A DNA stretch of 64,000 bases from Candidatus Thorarchaeota archaeon (lineage in GTDB: Archaea > Asgardarchaeota > Thorarchaeia > Thorarchaeales > Thorarchaeaceae): NCBI GenBank assembly GCA_038893995.1, contig JAWAQK010000004.1, positions 5,837-69,836 of the forward strand, written 5' to 3'. A program made the translations under genes and the position numbers. This document shows, piece by piece, positions 21,619-32,376 of the stretch. Below the pieces are notes generated by a model. It had not been told where the DNA came from and did not search any database. It worked only from the letters and a program-made list of their open reading frames with translations. Within the stretch, counting starts at the first letter, position 1; every line of letters begins with the position of its first letter.

Positions 21619-22326
21619 GTGGTGGTCCTGCAAATGGTATCGGAGCATCCTCATGCAGGCTCCGGCGGAGATCGTCCTTCTATCCTGGTCGTCTGCGCCC
21701 ATCCTGACGACGAATGTATCGGTGCAGGGGGAACGGTTGCCAAACATGCCCACCTGGGCTTCCCGGTGCATGTATTGTGTCTGACTGGCAATCCAGAACG
21801 ACATAGAGAACTCTCAGCCTCCTGCAAGACGCTTGGCGTCAGCACGCTACGCGCTATCGAACGCGGCGATCACGACATAGACTGGTCTCTAAGAGCAGTT
21901 GTCGTTGAGGCGATACTGGATGTCCGGCCTGCAGTTGTGATAACACACACTCCTGACGACTACAACCGGGCTCATGAGATGTGTCACAGAGTTGTGGTCG
22001 AGGCTGTCGAGTGGGCCTCACATGTCACACAGTTCCCCAACGCACACAGGACCAGGCAAGTCCTCACGATGGAGATAAACACACTTCATCCGCATCCAAA
22101 CATACTTGTCGATGTCTCTTCATCTTATGACGTGGCCATCAGTGCCCTCAGCGAACACAAGTCTCAGCTGAGAAAGTCAGACCGATTCTACGAGCGATTC
22201 TATGACGCAAGGACCAGGCTCAGGGGAGTACAGGCTGGATGTGAACGGGCAGAGGCATTTGGCATAGTTCTCCCAACTCACGCCGGCCCGTTCTACACTA
22301 TCAACAGTGTTGATACGCTTCTCTGA
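21619..22326 (+). CDS. bshB: PIG-L/LmbE-family N-acetylglucosaminyl deacetylase, BshB-like
   Basis: ILVVCAHPDDECIGAGGT zinc-site motif and a later HxDH-type region. The start could be ATG 21634 instead of GTG 21619. Confidence 0.68.
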   Translation: MVVLQMVSEHPHAGSGGDRPSILVVCAHPDDECIGAGGTVAKHAHLGFPVHVLCLTGNPERHRELSASCKTLGVSTLRAIERGDHDIDWSLRAVVVEAILDVRPAVVITHTPDDYNRAHEMCHRVVVEAVEWASHVTQFPNAHRTRQVLTMEINTLHPHPNILVDVSSSYDVAISALSEHKSQLRKSDRFYERFYDARTRLRGVQAGCERAEAFGIVLPTHAGPFYTINSVDTLL

Positions 22327-22327
22327 A

Positions 22328-22720
22328 CTACTCCTGCTCCGTCTCTGATCTCTTTCGTCTGGCGGCGAGCAATGCCTTTAGTTCGCCCATCATGCCGCCT
22401 CCAGGAGAGACTGGCTTCGGAGCGGCCGATACTGGTGCCTTCGCGATTGAGGGTGCTGCCTCGGCCGCCAGTGATGGTCCTCCTTCTGCAGGCGTCGGGG
22501 TGACTCCCCTTGCGATCCTGGACTCGAGAGAGCTGATCTTTGACTCGAGGCTATTCACCTGATTCTGGAGTGAGCTTATGTTCCCCTCAAGGACCCCGAT
22601 TGCCTCTACCAGCTTGTGAGTAATTGTACTGACGACCTCTCCAAGCCCCCTGAGCTTCTCCTCTGTAGGATCCTTGAGTGCCCACTCAAACTCTTCCATG
22701 ATGAAGTCATCGTCGCCCAT
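22328..22720 (-). CDS. Hypothetical coiled-coil protein with a Pro/Ala-rich linker
   Basis: 130 aa. Heptad segment SSLQNQVNSLESKISSLESRI, a low-complexity PA-rich region, and a basic C-terminus. Confidence 0.4.
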   Translation of the reverse strand: MGDDDFIMEEFEWALKDPTEEKLRGLGEVVSTITHKLVEAIGVLEGNISSLQNQVNSLESKISSLESRIARGVTPTPAEGGPSLAAEAAPSIAKAPVSAAPKPVSPGGGMMGELKALLAARRKRSETEQE

Positions 22721-22751
22721 GGATACGTCCCGCTAAGACTTCCTCGATACG

Positions 22752-24146
22752 CTATAAAGGTTGTCTGCGCCGACTTGCAACCTCCACAATTGTGCTCTGG
22801 ACTATTGGCTCGACGGAGTCGAGGATCTGCCTGAGACCGTCCGATGTCTTTGCCTCACAGGTGATTCTAATCACCGGTTCCGTACCCGAGGGTCTCACAA
22901 GTGCCCAACCATTTCTCAACACGATCCCCAGTCCGTCGACCTTGGTGACACTGACTATCTCGGGTACACTGGACGGCAGTCTCCTCTCTAACAACTCCAT
23001 CACGGGACCCTTGATGTGTTCTTCGCAGTTGAGCTTGACCTTGCTCAGGGGGTACACGGGTATGTCAGAGATGAGTTCTCCAAGAGTGCGGCCTGACTCA
23101 GCCATCAGTTCGAGTACCCTGCATACCGCGAGAAACGGTTCGGGTCCAAGGTGAAAATCGGGAAAGATGAAGACTCCGCAGGCCTCTCCTCCGAAGCATG
23201 CACCAGACTCCTGGATCTTCATGGCCACCTGAATGTCGCCAACGGGTGTGCGTATTGTCGCCCCACCACTCTTTGAGACAGTGTCATCGAGTACCTGTGA
23301 GCTATCGACAGTCGTGACGACTGTCTTGGACGTGCAATCGCGAATCATCTCTCGCGCAAGGAGGGCAATGATCCGGTCTCCTCGTATGACCTCTCCAGTC
23401 TCTGACACGAAGACGACCCGGTCTGAATCGCCATCATGTGCCACACCCAGCGCGGCCCCACTCTGTCTTACCATAGTGACAAGGTCAGCAAGGGACTCTT
23501 CGTCCGGCTCCGATCTTCTGCCCGGAAAGTGCCCATCGAGCTGGCCGTTGATACTCAGGACTTTACATCCAAGCTTACGCAGCAGGTACGGGGTCATGAG
23601 AGTACCAACACCATTACCGGGGTCGACCACCACCTTGAACCCCATGGATGCCACAAGACCAACGTCACAACGGTCTAGGATCGCCGTCATGTGTCTGGAA
23701 ACTGCATGGTCAATCTGGGTGTCCTTTCCCAGCCGGTCCCACGTCTGGCGCTTGAACTCTCTGCGCTGCAGTATGTCCTCTATCCGCCGTTCCTGCTCGG
23801 GTGTGTAGCCCATGCCATCGGACCGCCAGAACTTGACCCCTGTGTACTCCGGTGGATTATGCGACGCAGTCACTATGACTCCTGCAGCGTATCGATCAAC
23901 TCCGGTCATGAATGCCAGAGTCGGTGTCGGTATCGTGCCCGCACGCACAACATCGACACCTGTTGACATCACGCCGGCAGCAAATGCATCTGCAATCATT
24001 CTCCCCGTCGTTCGGGCATCTTGCGCAAGTAGGATCTTCCCCTCACCAAGATAGGTCCCGAGAGCCATACCGAGGTCCAGCGCGAGATCCAGGGTGAACT
24101 CTGTCCCGTAGACCTTTCTCACTCCTGTCGTTCCAAAGAGGGACAC
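22752..24146 (-). CDS. glmM: Phosphoglucosamine mutase / phosphohexomutase
   Basis: Active-site TASHNPPEYTGVKF, metal-site HDGDSDR, and the sugar loop. I prefer GTG 24146 (VSLFGTTGVR), which is preceded by GGTGGTGA, over the track start at 24209. Confidence 0.85.
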   Translation of the reverse strand: MSLFGTTGVRKVYGTEFTLDLALDLGMALGTYLGEGKILLAQDARTTGRMIADAFAAGVMSTGVDVVRAGTIPTPTLAFMTGVDRYAAGVIVTASHNPPEYTGVKFWRSDGMGYTPEQERRIEDILQRREFKRQTWDRLGKDTQIDHAVSRHMTAILDRCDVGLVASMGFKVVVDPGNGVGTLMTPYLLRKLGCKVLSINGQLDGHFPGRRSEPDEESLADLVTMVRQSGAALGVAHDGDSDRVVFVSETGEVIRGDRIIALLAREMIRDCTSKTVVTTVDSSQVLDDTVSKSGGATIRTPVGDIQVAMKIQESGACFGGEACGVFIFPDFHLGPEPFLAVCRVLELMAESGRTLGELISDIPVYPLSKVKLNCEEHIKGPVMELLERRLPSSVPEIVSVTKVDGLGIVLRNGWALVRPSGTEPVIRITCEAKTSDGLRQILDSVEPIVQSTIVEVASRRRQPL

Positions 24147-24341
24147 CTTCTCACCACCAGACCCTGTTCTGTGGTAGATGAAAAATGTAATGCTCTGAGG
24201 GGGGAACACTCTTGAACTCCGGTCAGTCGAGTGACCTCTGGAATCCTGATACTGGTCCGAGAAAGCTTATTAGGCCCGCATGAGCTACTCGCCAACCGAT
24301 TACTGGCGGTCAAGACGATACTGGAGAGTCTGGAATGGCAG

Positions 24342-24890
24342 ATGAGTAGTACGTATGATTATCTATTCAAGACGGTTGTTCTGGGGGAGGGTGCTGTCGG
24401 AAAGACTGCGATAGTCACCAGATTCTCGCATGGTTTCTTCAGGACTGACTACAAGACCACGATCGGGTCCCAGTTTGCAGTGAAGAGCATCGATGTCTTC
24501 ACTAAGAGCGGAAATCGTGTCACTGTAAAGCTTCAGATATGGGATGTGGCTGGTCAGTCCCGTTTTCAGATACTCAGACCGATGTATTATCGGGGATCCA
24601 GCGGCGGTCTGCTAGTCTATGATGTCACCAGAAGGCGTACGTTCCTAGTGCTCGACGAGTGGCTCGAGGAACTGAGGAAGTCAGTCAACAAGGACATTCC
24701 TCTCGTATTGGTCGCAAACAAGATAGACCTCCCCGACAGAGTGGTGACTGCAGCAGAGGGCAAGAAGTATGCCGAGGAGCACGGGATGCCCTACGTGGAG
24801 TCTAGTGCCAAGAGCGGAGAGGGTATTCTGGACGTATTCGAGAGTCTTGCGAAGACACTGATTGAGGCTCGAGAGGCTGGACGCGCTTAG
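24342..24890 (+). CDS. Rab/Ras-family small GTPase (eukaryote-like, no C-terminal prenylation Cys)
   Basis: YDYLFKTVVLGEGAVGKT (G1), YKTTIG (switch I), WDVAGQSRF (G3), NKID (G4), SSAKSG (G5). Internal ATG 24342 chosen; the 37 upstream residues in the track ORF look spurious. Confidence 0.85.
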   Translation: MSSTYDYLFKTVVLGEGAVGKTAIVTRFSHGFFRTDYKTTIGSQFAVKSIDVFTKSGNRVTVKLQIWDVAGQSRFQILRPMYYRGSSGGLLVYDVTRRRTFLVLDEWLEELRKSVNKDIPLVLVANKIDLPDRVVTAAEGKKYAEEHGMPYVESSAKSGEGILDVFESLAKTLIEAREAGRA

Positions 24891-24935
24891 CCACGCTGTC
24901 CGGGCCCAGATCGTCATTGGTCCTATCGGCTGGGA

Positions 24936-25523
24936 GTGTTCATGACCAAGCCGGACGAGTACTTCCCTGTCAACACAATTCCTGCTCTCTCATGGGCATT
25001 TGAGTTGTATCTGAAGAACAACGGCAGGTTCAAGGATGCTCCTGTTGTCGAACTCATACTTCAGGCTGGACAACATCGCGAATTGCTCAGCAAGAAGGGT
25101 GGCCACGAGATCATCGTGTGGATATCGAGGCGTCGCATCTACGTCCGGGCAAGATGCCTCGAGGACAAGGACTGTGAGTTCAATGTGGACAGGATTGACG
25201 GACGAGACCGAGAGGCCCTGAAGAAGCTGGCGTGGGACAAGATAGACGCGCGCAGATTCTTTGTGATGCTCCGCAAGTGGATAATGCGGCTCGACCTCGA
25301 CAATATACTGTTCATAAGGGCGCTCAACACAGTGTGCGATCACAAGGTGAGGATCCCATTGACCACGCAGTATGGGCGAACATTCGAGAAGTTTGATGAA
25401 TACCGACGCAATCGATGGCCCGAGGATGTCACCCCTGACGATATGGACCGCTTCATCGAGGAGTTGCTGATGCGGGTGTCATTCTGGTTCCAGAGCGCGG
25501 CAGCGGTTGGAGCGCTCGTCTGA
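24936..25523 (+). CDS. Hypothetical protein downstream of the small GTPase
   Basis: 195-aa ORF (GTG 24936 or ATG 24942), 45 nt after the GTPase stop on the same strand. No family recognised. Confidence 0.5.
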   Translation: MFMTKPDEYFPVNTIPALSWAFELYLKNNGRFKDAPVVELILQAGQHRELLSKKGGHEIIVWISRRRIYVRARCLEDKDCEFNVDRIDGRDREALKKLAWDKIDARRFFVMLRKWIMRLDLDNILFIRALNTVCDHKVRIPLTTQYGRTFEKFDEYRRNRWPEDVTPDDMDRFIEELLMRVSFWFQSAAAVGALV

Positions 25524-25536
25524 GGTGTGATGATGG

Positions 25537-26670
25537 ATGAAGATCGGTCTACTGGTCAATCCCATTGCCGGAATGGGTGGCCGTGTTGGCCTGAAGGGTA
25601 CGGATGGCGTATACGAGAGGGCAGTCAAGTTGGGTGCTGTACCTGTGGCACCCCAGAGAGCACAGGAGTTCCTCACATCACTGAAGCAGCTCTACACTCA
25701 TCTTGAGAGGGTCCCCCCGGCGATCGTGACGTGTCCGTCCATCATGGGTCAGTCCGAGGTAGAATCAGTGGGTCTTCACCATGAAACTATCGATGTTCAG
25801 ATTGGCAATCCGACCTCGTCAGAAGACACAAGACGTTGTGTCAATGCTCTCTATCAGGCAGGCGTGCGCCTCTTGGTGTTCGTAGGAGGAGACGGGACTG
25901 CAAGAGACATTGTTGACGCCGTGCAGACCAACAGGCTGGACGATCTCTCAGTGATTGGCGTGCCCTCAGGAGTCAAGATGTACAGTGGTGTCTTCGTCGT
26001 CAATCCAGCGGTTGCAGCAGATGTAGTTCGACTGGTGGACGAGGGGATGACAACAACCACCGACTTCGAGGTGATGGACGCCGATGAACAGTCATTCAGG
26101 GAGGACCAGTTCGTGGTTCGCCTCTATGGCTTTCTCAGGGGGCCACTTGTACCAGCACGATTTCAGGGTGCGAAACAGGTCAGCCCCGAGACCGTGGACG
26201 AGAGGGAGGCTCAGGAGGCCATCGCACGATATGTCGTAGAGCGGATGGTCGATGGCGACTGGTACATACTGGGTCCGGGTACCACTGTGAGAGCTGTGGC
26301 GGACCTGCTCGGCATCAGGAAGACCGTACTTGGCGTTGACCTATATCAACGGGGAAAGGTGTACAACGACGTCAATGAGTCTCAGATACTCCAGCTTGTG
26401 TCAGACTTCTCTCGGGCGTGGATCATGGTATCTCCCATTGGTCATCAGGGCATGCTGTTTGGACGAGGAAACCAACAGATCAGTCCTGCCATCATCGAAC
26501 GCGTTGGTCGCGATCATATAGTCGTCATGATGACTGCGGCCAAGCTACGAGGTATTTCGGGGGATCATATCTGTGTCGATACCGGCGATCCCAGAGTGGA
26601 TGAGATGCTGAGGGGATACATTCGGGTCATCACGGACTATGCTGAGATAAGACTGGTCAGGGTGGAATAG
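25537..26670 (+). CDS. ATP-NAD kinase-like family protein (COG3199-type)
   Basis: MKIGLLVNPIAGMGGRVGLKGTDG N-terminus and VGGDGTARDI motif. Confidence 0.68.
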   Translation: MKIGLLVNPIAGMGGRVGLKGTDGVYERAVKLGAVPVAPQRAQEFLTSLKQLYTHLERVPPAIVTCPSIMGQSEVESVGLHHETIDVQIGNPTSSEDTRRCVNALYQAGVRLLVFVGGDGTARDIVDAVQTNRLDDLSVIGVPSGVKMYSGVFVVNPAVAADVVRLVDEGMTTTTDFEVMDADEQSFREDQFVVRLYGFLRGPLVPARFQGAKQVSPETVDEREAQEAIARYVVERMVDGDWYILGPGTTVRAVADLLGIRKTVLGVDLYQRGKVYNDVNESQILQLVSDFSRAWIMVSPIGHQGMLFGRGNQQISPAIIERVGRDHIVVMMTAAKLRGISGDHICVDTGDPRVDEMLRGYIRVITDYAEIRLVRVE

Positions 26671-26676
26671 GACCAT

Positions 26677-27441
26677 ATGAGCAAGACCTGCGATAGCTCC
26701 AGACCAGTGATCCTGATGACTGACTTCGGGGAGTCTGAGTATGTCGGCATGATGAGGGGCGTGATACGAAGTCTATGTCCGTCAGCCGAGATCCTCGACC
26801 TCACACATTCGATAACACCTCAGTCAGTAACTGAGGGTGCATGGGTGCTACTCAAGTCGTACAGATTCTTCCCCGTAGGGAGCCTGTTCGTCGCAGTGGT
26901 CGATCCTGGCGTGGGTAGTGCAAGAGACGCCGTGATCGTCAGGACAAGGGAGTACACCTTTCTCGGTCCGGACAACGGTCTCCTGTATCCCACTGCAACA
27001 GAGAACGGACTAGAGGCTGTCTACAGCATCATTGTACCCACCTCTGTGTCCAAGACGTTTCACGGTCGAGACGTCTTTGCTGTTGCTGCAGGCAGACTGT
27101 CCGCAGGGGCTCCGATTGACACGCTGGGGGTCAGGAAGGGATCTCTTGACGTCCCTCTGATTTTCCATCTCGAGGGTCCAGAGGGTCAAGTCGTGCGCAT
27201 TGACCGTTTTGGGAATGTCATCACCAATATTCCTCCGACCGACCGATCCGAGGTCGAGCTGGTGATTCATGGTCAGAGTCGAAGACTGAGAGTTGTCGAT
27301 AACTATGCAGCCGGAAGTGACTCCGAGCTTCTGGTGGTCATAGGAAGCGCAGGAACCCTGGAAATAGCCGTCAAGAATGGTCGGGCTGCTGAGCTACTAC
27401 AGGTCCAGGCCGGCGACATCGTGATGATCAGACCGCTGTGA
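26677..27441 (+). CDS. SAM hydroxide adenosyltransferase family (DUF62, SalL/FlA-like)
   Basis: LMTDFG, DLTH, VAVVDPGVGS, FLGPDNGLL and FHGRDVFA motifs. Confidence 0.82.
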   Translation: MSKTCDSSRPVILMTDFGESEYVGMMRGVIRSLCPSAEILDLTHSITPQSVTEGAWVLLKSYRFFPVGSLFVAVVDPGVGSARDAVIVRTREYTFLGPDNGLLYPTATENGLEAVYSIIVPTSVSKTFHGRDVFAVAAGRLSAGAPIDTLGVRKGSLDVPLIFHLEGPEGQVVRIDRFGNVITNIPPTDRSEVELVIHGQSRRLRVVDNYAAGSDSELLVVIGSAGTLEIAVKNGRAAELLQVQAGDIVMIRPL

Positions 27442-27539
27442 TGTACACAGTCATTGATCTCCGTGCTGAAGTAATGAGACCCTAGCCACTACACACATAT
27501 TGGCATATGGTACGTCAATGATGGAGGCGACCATCCATC

Positions 27540-28115
27540 ATGGATCGAGAGCAGACCGGACTCACATACGTGATATTCCCGACGGAGATGGGACACTGCG
27601 GAGCAGTATTCAGGAAGGAACGGGGCCGTCCACTGGCAGTCCGCGTATATCTACCGGCACCTCCTGACATGGTTGTTGCATCCATAAGACGTGAGTTCCC
27701 GGACGCAGAGGAGAACACGGGCCCACTGCCCGAACTCTGTCATCTCATCCAGAGGTATCTTCGTGGAGAAGACCTAGAGTTTCCCCTCGAACTGATTGAC
27801 CTCTCAGTGGTTGGACCATTCCAGCGTGCGGTCCTCCTTGTCGACCGTGAGATCCCTAGGGGCATGGTCGCGTCGTACGCCTGGGTCGCAGGTAGACTTG
27901 GCAATCAAGGCTCACGGGCAGTCGGAAATGCACAGGCGAGGAATCCCTTTCCTATCGTAGTGCCCTGTCACAGGGTCATACGGTCTGATGGGACACTCGG
28001 TGGTTTCGGCGGAGGTCCAGACATGAAGAAGAGGTTGCTACGTCTTGAGGGCGTCTACATTGATGAACATGGTCACGTGTCGCCGCCGCAGATCATCCGT
28101 CACTACGAGAACTGA
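27540..28115 (+). CDS. ogt: Methylated-DNA--protein-cysteine methyltransferase
   Basis: Active-site PCHRVI, preceded by the helix-turn-helix SYAWVAGRLGNQGSRAVGNA. Confidence 0.85.
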   Translation: MDREQTGLTYVIFPTEMGHCGAVFRKERGRPLAVRVYLPAPPDMVVASIRREFPDAEENTGPLPELCHLIQRYLRGEDLEFPLELIDLSVVGPFQRAVLLVDREIPRGMVASYAWVAGRLGNQGSRAVGNAQARNPFPIVVPCHRVIRSDGTLGGFGGGPDMKKRLLRLEGVYIDEHGHVSPPQIIRHYEN

Positions 28116-28295
28116 CCATGTCCCAACACATATGTCGAATGCAGTGTCATTGAACGTGATTTACACCGTCAGGGGTCAGCTGAGCCTTTTCGTGGTCCAC
28201 AGGACTGTCTCCTTCAGTCCAGCTCCTGATAGCGCGGGCCGTGGCTCCAGTCAGTGGAGGCGGAAGTCGATAGGCACTCCGGCTCCACCCCTGGG

Positions 28296-29603
28296 CTACA
28301 GATCAAACCCGGTCCGACCAGTTCCCCATGACTCGAGGGCCCTGCGTAGCTCAACATGGTCCTCTGCATACTTCTTGAGGGGTATCTTGTTCATGACTGC
28401 ATCGATTGCCTGACGGAATGCCCTGGCACCGGCCCTTGGCCCGTCAGGATGTGCGTGAATGCCGCCCCCCGAGCCGATGACTATGTCTGGTCCCAGGTCT
28501 CCGACGACTTCGTCCACCATCCCAGGTGAGATACCTCCGCTAGGCATGGGTGCAGTCTGTCTGATGTGATGTAGAGGCATGACCATCTCCCTGGCCATTG
28601 CAATGAATCTCTCTTTCAGCAGTGGTGCTTTCCCATATGGGGCCGGAAATACAGTGATGTCAGAACCACAGATGCGTGGCAGCTTGCCTATGACGAGGTT
28701 GGTTCCCACTCCGGTTATTGGCGAATAGGACAGAGCACCCGTTATGTCCATGTGAGCCAGTACGGGCACGTTTAGCGATGGGTCCTCACATACATGGCGG
28801 AACGCGGAATACCCCACTGCGAGGAAGTTTATCATCAGTGCATTTGCACCAAGCTCTATTGCCCGCTCTGCGTTCTCGAACATCTTCGGGACCTCGTCCG
28901 TGATGTTCACCGTGAAGAGCGTCTTCTCTCCCTTCTCCGAGTTGGCCCGGTCAATGGCCTCCATGAATAGTGGGATTCTCTCCTCGATGGAGTTGAAACA
29001 GGCATTCGCGAGGAGTTCGTCATCCTTGATTATGTCCGCTCCGCCGGCCGCAGCCTCGTAACAGAGACTCGCACCCAGTTTGGCCGAAGTATACACACAG
29101 GGCTTGATCATATTGTTGAGCAGCGGGCGTTCCTTCACCCCGAGCAGCTTTCTGAGACCCTCGATGCCGAACTTTGGTCCCTTGAACTCCTTCAGCCAAC
29201 TCTGTGGAAACCTGAGGTCTAGGAGCTTTATCCTGCCACCAAGAGATATGTTTCCCACCACCGTGCTCAGGAGCATCGGTATCTGAGCCCCAAAGTTCTC
29301 CCACGGAAAGGCTACCTGAATGATGTACTCTCGTCTCTCGAGGTCCTTGGGAATGCTATACTCATACTGGGGGACCTCGTACACGCCGATTACCCTTGCA
29401 ATATGCCGTCTCCTCACATCGGGAGTTTCTCCTGGCACTGGTGTCCAAGTACCAGTGCTCTGCTCCACTGCGGCAGCATGAGCTACCTCTCTCGCATCTA
29501 TGAATGGAGGTAATCCAACATAGTACGTACCTATCACATACTTCTCCGGGTCAATCGCATCGGCAAGTGCGTCTGGCAGGGAATCGAGTGGCTCTCTGTG
29601 CAT
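28296..29603 (-). CDS. RuBisCO large-subunit-like protein (form-III-related; probably non-carboxylating form IV / RLP)
   Basis: EQSTGTW, IIKDDE, PSGGISPG and GGGIHAHPDGPRAGARAFRQAIDAV are clearly RbcL-family. However, KPK is KPC, HRAMH is HMDIT, and the H327-equivalent is T (see findings). Confidence 0.85.
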   Translation of the reverse strand: MHREPLDSLPDALADAIDPEKYVIGTYYVGLPPFIDAREVAHAAAVEQSTGTWTPVPGETPDVRRRHIARVIGVYEVPQYEYSIPKDLERREYIIQVAFPWENFGAQIPMLLSTVVGNISLGGRIKLLDLRFPQSWLKEFKGPKFGIEGLRKLLGVKERPLLNNMIKPCVYTSAKLGASLCYEAAAGGADIIKDDELLANACFNSIEERIPLFMEAIDRANSEKGEKTLFTVNITDEVPKMFENAERAIELGANALMINFLAVGYSAFRHVCEDPSLNVPVLAHMDITGALSYSPITGVGTNLVIGKLPRICGSDITVFPAPYGKAPLLKERFIAMAREMVMPLHHIRQTAPMPSGGISPGMVDEVVGDLGPDIVIGSGGGIHAHPDGPRAGARAFRQAIDAVMNKIPLKKYAEDHVELRRALESWGTGRTGFDL

Positions 29604-29777
29604 CTTGATCGTCAGTTTCTTCGGCCTACTGTCTATTATTTCCTTCTGAAGGGACAGCCGCGCCCATGTTCTTCAGTCTCCCACTCGCAACAGGGCTGGA
29701 CGACCTCTATTTGTGACAAGGCCAGCATGAGGGGATTCTGGAGTACACGCGGGCGGAAGTGTCCCATAGCTTGGTTT

Positions 29778-31424
29778 ATGAGTAGATGGCTCGGCAATCA
29801 CCCAGAAAACAAAGGGAGCCTTAGATTCACGTTGAGACCCATCCTCGAGATTGCCCGGAGTATTGGTATTCCAGACGATTGCGTTGAACCTTACGGACAG
29901 TACATGGCAAAGATAAGCCTCAGGGCAAGGGATGTTCTGAAGGAGCGGCGTGGTCGTCTCATTCTTGTGACCGCGACAACTCCGACTCCCTCTGGAGAGG
30001 GCAAGACTACCAATGCAATCGGACTGTCGATGGCCCTGAATAGGCTGGGCTATAGTGCGGTGGTCACGCTCAGGGAACCATCATTGGGCCCAGTCTTTGG
30101 TGTGAAGGGCGGTGCCGCTGGTGGCGGGAGGTCTCAGGTCCTCCCGTCCGAGAGGATCAATCTCTTGTTCACGGGGGACTTTCCGGCAGTCAGTGCAGCA
30201 CACAATCTGTTGGCTGCGATGATCGACAATCACATCTACCAGGGGAATGCACTCGGAATAGATGTCGTAAAGGTGAGCTGGCCGCGCACCGTAGACATGA
30301 ATGATCGTGCTCTCAGGGAGATAGTTGTTGCGCTGGGTCAGAAGAACGGCATCCCCCGCGAGACATCGTTCGTGATAACAGCAGCCTCGGAGGTCATGGC
30401 CATTCTTGCCCTTGCAAAGGACTATGAAGACCTACGAGAGCGGCTTGGTAGGATTGTAGTCGGAGCGACCACAACAAAGGAAGATGTGTGCGCGCGGGAT
30501 CTCAAGGCTGATGGTGCAATGAGCGTTCTCCTCAGGGATGCACTCATGCCCAATCTCGTCCAGACCTCGGAGGGCACTCCGGCAATCGTCCACACAGGTC
30601 CATTTGCGAACATTGCACACGGTACCAACTCGGTGATTGCCATAGATATGGCACTAAGGCTCTTCGACTACGTGGTTGTCGAGGCCGGCTTCGGAGCTGA
30701 CCTTGGTGCCGAGAAGTTTGTCAACATTGTGTCCCGCGTTGGAAACTTCAATATCGACGCGGTTGCACTCATCACCTCGATTCGTGCCCTGGAGGAGCAT
30801 GGCAAAGGTGATCTTAGGGCGGGATTCCCCAACCTGGAGGTACATGCCGAGAACATACACAGCTGGGGGCTCCCTCTTGTCGTGGTACTCAATCGTTTCC
30901 CTGACGATACATCCGAGAAGATCGACATCCTCAGGAAGCTCTGTCAGGACCGGGGCTGGCAGTTCGAGGTCTCCGAGGTGTACGCCAAGGGCAGTGAGGG
31001 CGGACTGTCTGTGGCCAGAGCCGTTGTAGAAGCGGCTAGCAAGGGTTCTGAACTGAGAAGGACCTACGAACTGAGTGACAGCATCAAGTCGAAGATAGAG
31101 AAGGTCGCTAAGCAGGTGTATCATGCCTCAAGGGTGTCCTATTCGGAAGACGCAGAGAGTCAGCTAAGACGACTTGAAAAGCGGGGATACGGCAGCCTGC
31201 CGGTCTGCATTGCTAAGACTCAATTCTCGATATCAGACAACCCGAAGCTCAAGGGCCGACCCAGCGGCTTCGAAGTCTCTGTCCGTGAGGTCGAGCTGAA
31301 CGCAGGTGCGGGCTTCATCGTGGTCCTGATGGGAGACATACTCAGAATGCCCGGACTGCCCAAGCAACCTGCAGCAGAGGGGATGAGCATCGATGAAAAT
31401 GGAGAAATATCAGGAGTCTTTTGA
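29778..31424 (+). CDS. fhs: Formate--tetrahydrofolate ligase
   Basis: TPTPSGEGKTT P-loop, EPSLGPVFGVKGGAAGGG and FAVSEVYAKGSEGG-type blocks. 548 aa from ATG 29778. Confidence 0.9.
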   Translation: MSRWLGNHPENKGSLRFTLRPILEIARSIGIPDDCVEPYGQYMAKISLRARDVLKERRGRLILVTATTPTPSGEGKTTNAIGLSMALNRLGYSAVVTLREPSLGPVFGVKGGAAGGGRSQVLPSERINLLFTGDFPAVSAAHNLLAAMIDNHIYQGNALGIDVVKVSWPRTVDMNDRALREIVVALGQKNGIPRETSFVITAASEVMAILALAKDYEDLRERLGRIVVGATTTKEDVCARDLKADGAMSVLLRDALMPNLVQTSEGTPAIVHTGPFANIAHGTNSVIAIDMALRLFDYVVVEAGFGADLGAEKFVNIVSRVGNFNIDAVALITSIRALEEHGKGDLRAGFPNLEVHAENIHSWGLPLVVVLNRFPDDTSEKIDILRKLCQDRGWQFEVSEVYAKGSEGGLSVARAVVEAASKGSELRRTYELSDSIKSKIEKVAKQVYHASRVSYSEDAESQLRRLEKRGYGSLPVCIAKTQFSISDNPKLKGRPSGFEVSVREVELNAGAGFIVVLMGDILRMPGLPKQPAAEGMSIDENGEISGVF

Positions 31425-31440
31425 TTGATGGTGAATCGAG

Positions 31441-32376
31441 TTGACGACCTTTGAGATAGGCCCCACAGACTTCTGCAAGGACCGTGTCATCGACGGAAAG
31501 GCCCTCTCAGAAGCTATCCGTCAAGAGATAGAGAGGGAGGTGCATCATCTGACCGAGGAGCACGGAATCCCTCCGAAACTTGCGACGGTCCTAGTCGGTG
31601 ATGACCCAGGGTCCAAGATGTATGTCCGCATGAAACACAAGGCCTGTCAGAAGGTGGGCATACTCTCCGCCAACTACGACCTTCCGGGAAACACCACGCA
31701 GGATGAGCTGCTGGAGCTGGTTCGGCGACTCAATAACGATCCCACCGTTCATGGCATCCTCGTTCAGCTGCCTCTTCCGCGACATATCAATGAGGAAACG
31801 ATCCTGAGTGAGATCGACCCGTTGAAGGATGTTGACGGTTTCTCGCCAAGAAACATCTATCGACTCTTCAACGGGGCTGAGATGCTCAGTGCAGCTACTC
31901 CTCAGGGAATTGCAGTCATGCTCGACCATCTTGGCATCGAGTTGGAGGGGAAGCATGCCGTAATCGTCAACAGGTCGAACATAGTGGGTAAACCCCTCAT
32001 ATTCCTGCTGCTCAACCGGAACATGACTGTGACTATCTGTCACTCCCGCACGAAAGACCTTGCACAACATACCCGGAATGCCGATGTGCTAGTCACGGCC
32101 ATAGGCCGGAGGAAGTCGGCTGAGGACCCGTTCTTCATCACTGCAGACATGGTCAAGGAGGGGGCCGTTGTCATCGACGTTGCCACTCCTTATGGGGACT
32201 GCGACTTTGAGTCGCTGAAGTGCAAGGTGTCCTATATAACGCCAGTACCCGGCGGCGTCGGTCCGATGACGATCACAATGTTGCTCAAGAACGTACTGGC
32301 GTCCTACTCGTTCCAACAGGCTCAGACAAACGTCCTCAGCGCCGATGCTCTCGACTACGGGGCCTATATCTCATGA
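31441..32376 (+). CDS. folD: Bifunctional 5,10-methylene-THF dehydrogenase / methenyl-THF cyclohydrolase
   Basis: IDGKALS, LATVLVGDDPGSKMYVRMKHKAC, VIVNRSNIVGKPL, TPVPGGVGPMT. TTG start. Confidence 0.9.
   Translation: MTTFEIGPTDFCKDRVIDGKALSEAIRQEIEREVHHLTEEHGIPPKLATVLVGDDPGSKMYVRMKHKACQKVGILSANYDLPGNTTQDELLELVRRLNNDPTVHGILVQLPLPRHINEETILSEIDPLKDVDGFSPRNIYRLFNGAEMLSAATPQGIAVMLDHLGIELEGKHAVIVNRSNIVGKPLIFLLLNRNMTVTICHSRTKDLAQHTRNADVLVTAIGRRKSAEDPFFITADMVKEGAVVIDVATPYGDCDFESLKCKVSYITPVPGGVGPMTITMLLKNVLASYSFQQAQTNVLSADALDYGAYIS

Follow-up and report, generated by a model that had tools for sequence, protein, structure and literature searches.

Does the small gene that directly follows a Rab-like GTPase gene in an Asgard archaeon encode a regulator of that GTPase, or do the two genes stand together by inherited gene order? 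The question arises from a stretch of 64,000 nucleotides (hereafter the window, meaning the whole stretch that was analysed) on contig JAWAQK010000004.1 of a Candidatus Thorarchaeota archaeon, an Asgard archaeon whose assembly comprises 2.33 Mb in 82 contigs and is 91% complete. A preliminary description of the window had pointed to a eukaryote-like, Rab-family GTPase followed by a co-oriented open reading frame (ORF) of no recognisable family, and had proposed the latter as a GTPase-activating protein (GAP), guanine nucleotide exchange factor (GEF) or effector of a new type. The two genes at issue, the second of which is called the orphan here, are as follows.

24342..24890, + strand: Rab-like small GTPase, 182 amino acids (aa), with five G boxes, the catalytic Gln72 and zero Cys.
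24942..25523, + strand: family-restricted orphan protein, 193 aa (195 aa from GTG 24936), isoelectric point (pI) 9.0.

With moderate confidence, the pairing is read here as mainly inherited gene order, and the orphan as something other than a dedicated regulator of the GTPase. The proposed role as GAP, GEF or effector is so far unsupported, in view of the block-wide synteny of the region, a counter-example in the sister family, an upstream element of the orphan's own in most loci, the weakest co-evolution signal of ten gene pairs and a predicted structure in which no regulator fold was found. What the genes are, how conserved and how widespread they are, their order and the purifying selection on the orphan are results of the analysis; the metal site, the promoters, independent expression and the missing functional tie to the GTPase are inferences.

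For the comparison of gene order, regions of about 14 kb surrounding the orphan were taken from 58 further family genomes and from the window, giving 59 loci from 16 genera. Across these loci a block of about 12 kb is syntenic, comprising three genes (a PIG-L domain was seen), a gene for a 130-aa coiled-coil protein, PGM, in most cases an alpha/beta hydrolase, then the GTPase, the orphan, an NAD-kinase-like gene, an S-adenosylmethionine (SAM) hydrolase gene and ogt. Because the whole block is syntenic, the adjacency of GTPase and orphan is expected by descent. In the single sister-family genome (G025), which encodes a GTPase orthologue with 70% identity, the arrangement of the 130-aa protein, divergent PGM and GTPase is kept, a convergent ORF of 138 aa comes next after the GTPase, and the orphan profile found no match. 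Conservation of the neighbourhood, one of the checks named in the preliminary description, is thus complete within one family, at all 59 loci, and broken at the sister-family orthologue, so that the pairing does not accompany the GTPase wherever its orthologue occurs. In other Asgard families, the closest GTPase genes stand beside unrelated genes. Since the region is syntenic and the pairing ends at the family boundary, the neighbourhood by itself is weak evidence of a functional tie.

Additionally, two upstream elements bear on how the genes may be expressed.

24261..24273, + strand: element GAAAGCTTATTAG, resembling a transcription factor B recognition element (BRE) and TATA box, about 70-80 nt before the GTPase start; likely the GTPase promoter.
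24891..24941, + strand: 51-nt spacer between GTPase and orphan, with a degenerate motif copy CCTATCGG at 24922-24929 and GGGAG at 24932-24936, 5 nt before the ATG.

The BRE/TATA-like sequence, GAAA(G/C)CTTATTAG with the pattern AA-N1-3-TTATTA[AG], precedes the GTPase start by 63-125 nt in 46 of the 59 loci, and the GTPase would be transcribed from this promoter of its own. The position of the TTATTA[AG] element implies a leadered mRNA, and many relatives have a GGAGG-like site right before the ATG. Ahead of the orphan, a motif of the type CCCAAC-N-C-ATATCAG-G places its ATATC core 32-37 nt before the ATG in 40 of the 59 loci. When the stricter pattern [ACT]ATATCA[GA]G was applied to both strands of 1.47 Mb of loci, 25 copies had an ORF after them, and in about 21 cases this ORF was the orphan, so that within these loci the pattern is almost specific to that gene. 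Loci in which another gene splits the GTPase from the orphan still have the motif. This motif could be the promoter of a leaderless mRNA or the binding site of a regulator. Its fixed distance from the ATG fits the promoter of a (nearly) leaderless mRNA; on that view the orphan would head a separate unit in most relatives. In most members of the family, the orphan is probably expressed from this promoter-like element, and expression of that kind would speak against a dedicated, obligatory regulator of the GTPase. No positional AT enrichment of the TATA type was found ahead of 1412 long ORFs in the genome; since no general promoter consensus could be derived, the promoter reading of both motifs is a matter of resemblance. 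A scan for sigma-70 promoters and terminators, which is not relevant to archaea, gave counts equal to those of shuffled sequences, and an Rfam search of window positions 22000-28500 at E <= 0.1 returned nothing.

Co-evolution within the block was assessed by the mirror-tree method for five block genes in 29 non-redundant genomes, with the common phylogenetic signal regressed out on other genes. The residual correlation between GTPase and orphan, 0.075, was the lowest of the ten gene pairs (range 0.075-0.39), in a comparison that is low in power because the GTPase barely varies (mean distance 0.21; orphan, 0.63).

The orphan itself is a genuine gene. As the preliminary description stated, a co-oriented ORF of 195 aa, read from GTG (24936-25523), begins 45 nt after the GTPase stop; because nearly all homologues are 193-194 aa long and aligned from the ATG at 24942, the gene more likely spans 24942-25523, with a gap of 51 nt. 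A single-protein search returned 93 homologues of 51-69% identity, all of them unnamed or labelled 'hypothetical protein', and for the closest ones the source annotations name the organisms Thorarchaeota. The ratio of non-synonymous to synonymous substitution rates (dN/dS) has a median of 0.042 and a maximum of 0.124 (21 of 36 pairs with 0 < dS < 3). Given these 93 homologues and the low median ratio, the orphan is a real, strongly constrained gene and not a chance frame.

Its distribution is narrow. A profile built from 27 members detected the orphan as a single copy in 69 of the 76 further genomes of its family; the seven without a match are assemblies of 74-92% completeness. Across 29 other families of the phylum, none of 224 genomes gave a match. 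A HMMER search without filters of 1.84 billion representatives gave 12 matches, namely one full-length 50% cluster and fragments. The orphan family thus arose in, or is recognisable only in, one archaeal family. The one longer match, a 266-aa protein (P0101), was considered as a fused form and rejected: only its last 47 residues are common to the orphan, its N-terminal part is unrelated, and it is likely an assembly or frameshift chimera. Literature word searches on GTPase topics brought up no description of the 193-aa family, which is weak evidence of its being unpublished. The stretch is contained in five hot-springs metagenome runs from two studies, apparently of DNA, one of which may be its source, with no RNA run among those listed.

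The statement that the orphan belongs to no recognisable family was upheld in every sequence search. Pfam, queried with 27 orphan members at E <= 1, yielded no family and only two isolated chance rows; NCBIfam gave no match, PADLOC none for the GTPase or the orphan, and the PDB sequence search with the orphan profile 0 matches at E <= 10. The AlphaFold2 model, built from the 27-member alignment, is confident, with a predicted local distance difference test score (pLDDT) of 90.2 and a predicted template modelling score (pTM) of 0.87. It consists of an N-terminal helix (residues 8-25), four antiparallel strands (37-47, 50-62, 65-72 and 82-86) and a helical C-terminal half. Foldseek found nothing at E <= 0.001 for the whole model in PDB and BFVD. 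VIA-align, run against 48,161 representatives, reached a best Z of 4.7, which concerns the helical C-terminal half only (a nucleoporin fragment, 61 residues) and lies below the stated noise level of the tool, as the best Z for unmatched models is typically 7-8; the fold tools also caution that an absent match does not exclude a fold.

Known regulators of small GTPases were sought among these results. Roadblock and longin chains are absent from the listed Foldseek and VIA matches for the whole model and for its N-terminal half, while TBC RabGAP, DENN and other Rab GEF and GAP families gave no Pfam or NCBIfam match to the orphan, the best VIA chains (Z 4.7 and 4.2) being unrelated to them. The remote-homology and fold check suggested in the preliminary description therefore delivered a confident predicted fold, and did not recover a known regulator fold. 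Mog1/PsbP-fold proteins bind Ran; PsbP/DcrB-type chains appeared for the orphan at VIA Z 2.8-3.2 and were dismissed as noise. A TBC-like IxxDxxR reading of the orphan segment RIDGRDR was tried by eye and did not fit. The ESM Atlas offered no usable feature match, and its structure rows, with a template modelling score of at most 0.34, are meaningless because its own model of the orphan is poor (pLDDT 0.39).

Conservation of histidine and cysteine among 90 full-length orphan homologues marks out a cluster. H45, H55 and C78 are present in 90 of 90 sequences, C72 in 89 and C132 in 88, and C72, C78 and C132 are the sole cysteines of the protein. By strand register, H45, H55 and C72 are expected on the same face of the sheet, with C78 in the next loop. 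Judging from this invariance and register, a metal such as zinc is the most likely ligand of the His-His-Cys-Cys(-Cys) cluster. The orphan, a basic protein of 23 kDa, would then probably bind a macromolecular partner through the metal-stabilised face of its sheet.

The reading frame of the GTPase is open over 24231-24890, and the start is placed at the ATG at 24342, giving 182 aa, because the beginning MSSTYDYLFK... is common to all orthologues. The translation contains G1 GEGAVGKT, switch-I T40, G3 DVAGQ (68-72), G4 NKID (126-129) and G5 SAK (155-157); among 22 aligned GTPases, G15, G20, K21, T22, T40, D68, G71, Q72, N126, K127, D129, S155 and A156 are invariant. The protein ends in ...LIEAREAGRA, soon after the last helix, and has none of the hypervariable, Cys-ending tail of eukaryotic Rabs; as it has zero cysteines, a C-terminal cysteine for prenylation is absent. 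The YDYLFK start, the GxxxVGKT motif, the five G boxes and the missing C-terminal Cys, all noted in the preliminary description, were each found in the translation as described. The protein is read as a GTP/GDP molecular switch: its P-loop is intact, the switch-I Thr, the catalytic Gln of DxxGQ, NKxD and SAK are present, and the prenylated tail of eukaryotes is missing.

Family searches place the GTPase within the Ras superfamily. Pfam PF00071 (Ras) matches residues 10-173 over profile positions 1-160 of 162 (2e-49, 167.7 bits, cut-off 21.6), other Pfam matches are Roc (1e-31) and Arf (4e-13), and NCBIfam small_GTP TIGR00231 matches at 1e-24 (87.2 bits, cut-off 42.5). In the PDB, the best sequence match is 7EZB, 'Thorarchaeota Rab' (2.2e-54, 187 bits, residues 6-176). 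The other 59 of the best 60 matches, out of 785 at E <= 1e-10, carry Sec4, Ypt, Rab or 'GTP-binding'-only names at 1e-35 to 1e-41, with Sec4, Rab18 and Rab14 following 7EZB near 1e-40. The RabF consensus of Pereira-Leal and Seabra from 2000 reportedly reads IGVDF, KLQIW, RFrsiT, YYRGA and LVYDIT. The corresponding segments of the GTPase are IGSQF, KLQIW, RFQILR, YYRGS and LVYDVT, of which RabF1 and RabF3 deviate from that consensus. By similarity ranking and motifs, not by phylogeny, the GTPase appears closer to Rab than to Ras, Rho, Arf or Ran, and its supposed Rab-like, eukaryote-like nature is borne out to that extent.

Orthologues of 74-88% identity occur in 17 other genomes of the family and one of 70% in the single sister-family genome, and outside the order the identity does not exceed about 54%. 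The genome of the window has 28 Ras-family matches above the Pfam cut-off, and the GTPase is therefore one of many paralogues. A Rab-like domain 51-57% identical to the GTPase, located outside the window in this genome (contig C8:4979-5506) and at matching places in most of the family genomes searched, makes up the N-terminal part of large multidomain proteins with open frames of about 770-820 aa.

Proteins of this kind have already been described for Asgard archaea. According to the available parts of Tran et al. 2024 (PMC10933270), the structure of Thor-Rab has been solved, Asgard Rabs have the Rab core without a prenylated tail, and the intrinsic GTP hydrolysis of Thor-Rab is slow, which implies GAPs or GEFs not yet identified. 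The accessible portions of Surkont & Pereira-Leal 2016 (PMC4915359) report archaeal Rab-like proteins with RabF-type motifs and without C-terminal cysteines, for which phylogeny by itself is inconclusive. The GTPase resembles Thor-Rab (PDB 7EZB/7EZD/7EZE) in its length class, in KLQIW, YYRG and LVYDVT, in its complete G boxes and in the lack of a prenylatable C-terminal Cys, but it is a different paralogue from the crystallised protein. Its orthologous group is unusually conserved (74-88% within the family, 70% in the sister family) and carries DVAGQS, whereas DTGGQE/D is seen in the nearest GTPases of six genomes that belong to other families.

Against this background, the best-surviving alternative to inherited gene order makes the orphan a partner of the GTPase that is specific to the lineage and structurally new, whether as GAP, GEF, effector, adaptor or GDI-like factor (in the sense of a guanine nucleotide dissociation inhibitor). 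The adjacency would then be kept for co-expression; we consider this alternative unlikely. Several observations weigh on its side and thus against the reading preferred here. In all 59 loci, drawn from 16 genera, the GTPase lies upstream of the orphan on the same strand, and in 54 of them less than 200 nt separate the two (median 101 nt). No other junction on this side of the block is as stable as theirs, and within the right half it resists insertion best. At locus L015, which represents one genus, the stop of the GTPase gene overlaps the start of the orphan, an arrangement compatible with co-translation in that case. In the window, the motif copy ahead of the orphan is degenerate and displaced, a Shine-Dalgarno-like GGGAG precedes the ATG within the 51-nt gap, and the orphan may be co-transcribed with the GTPase by read-through. 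The low power of the mirror-tree comparison lessens what can be drawn from its result. The GTPase, moreover, keeps its catalytic Gln, and Thor-Rab, as far as the source at hand goes (PMC10933270), is slow and thought to need a GAP or GEF; the invariant orphan residues R84, R90 and R178 could in principle act as a finger.

Against a partner role stand the descent of the whole 12-kb block, the sister-family orthologue without an orphan, the lowest co-evolution of ten pairs and the orphan's own conserved upstream element. The pair is also separable. The short spacing has exceptions, with gaps of 367, 633 and 1040 nt and, in two loci, of about 1280 nt. In three loci a substantial gene on the opposite strand lies between the two: L073 and L090 have one for a winged-helix protein of 256 aa, L101 an ORF of 274 aa. 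The gaps in L091 and L064 contain only opposite-strand ORFs of 70 and 83 aa. Furthermore, Asgard GTPase genes are mostly not in operons with their regulators, as stated in the consulted sections of two sources (PMC10933270; 10.1101/2020.10.19.343400). A bolder version of this alternative, somewhat less likely again, would make the orphan a metal-dependent partner with a new structure that one Asgard family invented for a Rab-like GTPase.

A second alternative shifts attention to the downstream genes, which continue on the same strand with short gaps (13, 6 and 98 nt from the orphan through to ogt), exactly as previously described.

25537..26670, + strand: NAD-kinase-like gene, 13 nt after the orphan (Pfam NAD_kinase 4.2e-15, NAD_kinase_C 1e-11).
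26677..27441, + strand: SAM hydroxide adenosyltransferase / SAM hydrolase, DUF62 (SAM_HAT_N 3.6e-48, SAM_HAT_C 2e-21).
27540..28115, + strand: O6-methylguanine-DNA methyltransferase, ogt (Pfam DNA_binding_1 1.7e-28, NCBIfam ogt 2.8e-24).

The orphan could be the first gene of an operon with the NAD-kinase-like and SAM hydrolase genes, serving as an accessory or regulatory subunit in a nucleotide- or SAM-related pathway, a role that is improbable on present evidence. The 13- and 6-nt gaps in the window and the promoter-like motif directly ahead of the orphan agree with such an operon, as do the adjacency of orphan and NAD-kinase-like gene in 41 of 56 informative loci (three further loci are too short to tell) and the distance of at most 130 nt between NAD-kinase-like and SAM hydrolase genes in 32 of 37. 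This junction, however, is broken by insertions of 0.8-6 kb in nine loci, and the NAD-kinase-like gene is absent within at least 2 kb in six. Orthologues of the NAD-kinase-like gene with 40-51% identity occur in five other Asgard families beside other neighbours, none of them orphan-like, and the mirror-tree partial correlation between orphan and NAD-kinase-like gene, 0.26, is unremarkable. Under the preferred reading of inherited order and independent expression, the orphan is nevertheless probably often expressed together with these two genes. The NAD-kinase-like and SAM hydrolase genes (25537-27441, + strand), 6 nt apart in the window, may be a family-specific functional pair in their own right.

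A third possibility, that the orphan is a small basic nucleic-acid binder whose N-terminal module combines sheet and helix in the manner of PUR, PC4 or Whirly proteins, can coexist with the other readings. When residues 1-100 were modelled alone (pLDDT 82), a PUR repeat ranked first with both tools: Pur-alpha (3k44) was the best VIA match at Z 4.2, its root-mean-square deviation being 3.7 over 79 residues, and human PURA headed the Foldseek list at E 0.53, nothing in the PDB reaching E <= 0.001. Two PC4 homologues followed at VIA Z 3.2 and 2.9, and the pI of 9.0 is in keeping with such a function. This possibility is distinctly improbable, as every score falls below the noise level of the tool (Z 7-8), the order of elements is a helix followed by four strands, the match spans two different PUR repeats, and there is no sequence signal. 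The predicted resemblance to PUR and PC4 is best treated as a lead, and novelty of the fold is not claimed.

Comparison with known systems clarifies why a regulator was suspected. MglA-MglB, the roadblock or longin and GTPase pairs of Asgard archaea and the predicted LAMTOR1-like/Rab-like/DENN operon likewise set a small Ras-superfamily GTPase beside a small co-oriented gene, and this likeness is the source of the regulator idea for the orphan. The orphan differs from roadblock, longin and DENN proteins in having no sequence match to them. Roadblock and longin domains have a helix-interrupted sheet, whereas the orphan model runs from a helix through four consecutive strands into helices.

The pair is not the LAMTOR1-like/Rab-like/DENN operon. 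In the portion of Liu et al. (10.1101/2020.10.19.343400) that was available, most eukaryote-like genes of Asgard archaea are not in conserved neighbourhoods, the exception being the LAMTOR1-like/Rab-like/DENN operon, which is found in most Asgard lineages; the pairing with the orphan is, by comparison, limited to one family. The orphan resembles the lineage-specific orphan families of Asgard archaea in being named only 'hypothetical protein' and in occurring in one family only. Unlike many orphans, it is near-universal and single-copy within that family, evolves under strong purifying selection, has a confident predicted fold and contains an invariant His/Cys cluster.

Further observations concern the surroundings of the pair. 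The spacing from PGM to the GTPase is highly variable among the family loci, being 0.9-1.5 kb in 31 of 51. In most relatives an alpha/beta-hydrolase gene (Abhydrolase_1, 5e-25; L053:5461-6282, + strand) lies between PGM and the GTPase in the orientation of the latter. The genome of the window lacks it, and only 132 nt (24210-24341) separate the divergent PGM and GTPase starts. The 130-aa coiled-coil protein, encoded at 22328-22720 on the - strand of the window, has an Ala/Pro-rich tail and no significant Pfam family, and its gene adjoins PGM in 43 of the 59 loci and in L102, from the sister family. Beyond ogt, at 28296-32376, a homologue of the RuBisCO large subunit (- strand, PF00016 5e-47) adjoins formate-tetrahydrofolate ligase (8e-224) and FolD (+ strand), with an ORF overlap of a few bases between the RuBisCO stop region and the ligase frame.

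Asgard archaea encode dozens of Rab-like GTPases, and which proteins regulate which of them is largely unsettled. Because gene order rarely helps in this matter, to judge from the parts of the literature at hand (PMC10933270; 10.1101/2020.10.19.343400), a GTPase whose co-oriented neighbour is so faithful would be a useful test case. The orphan is genuine, confidently folded, specific to its family and worth expressing. As it stands, the locus joins an ordinary Rab-like GTPase to a conserved hypothetical protein and represents an inexpensive biochemical test case, not a discovery. If the orphan were a metal-dependent partner after all, its candidate roles would include those of effector, of membrane or cargo adaptor, and of a GAP or GEF unrelated in fold to roadblock, longin, TBC and DENN proteins, and the family would then offer a genetically paired Asgard Rab and regulator that could be reconstituted in vitro.

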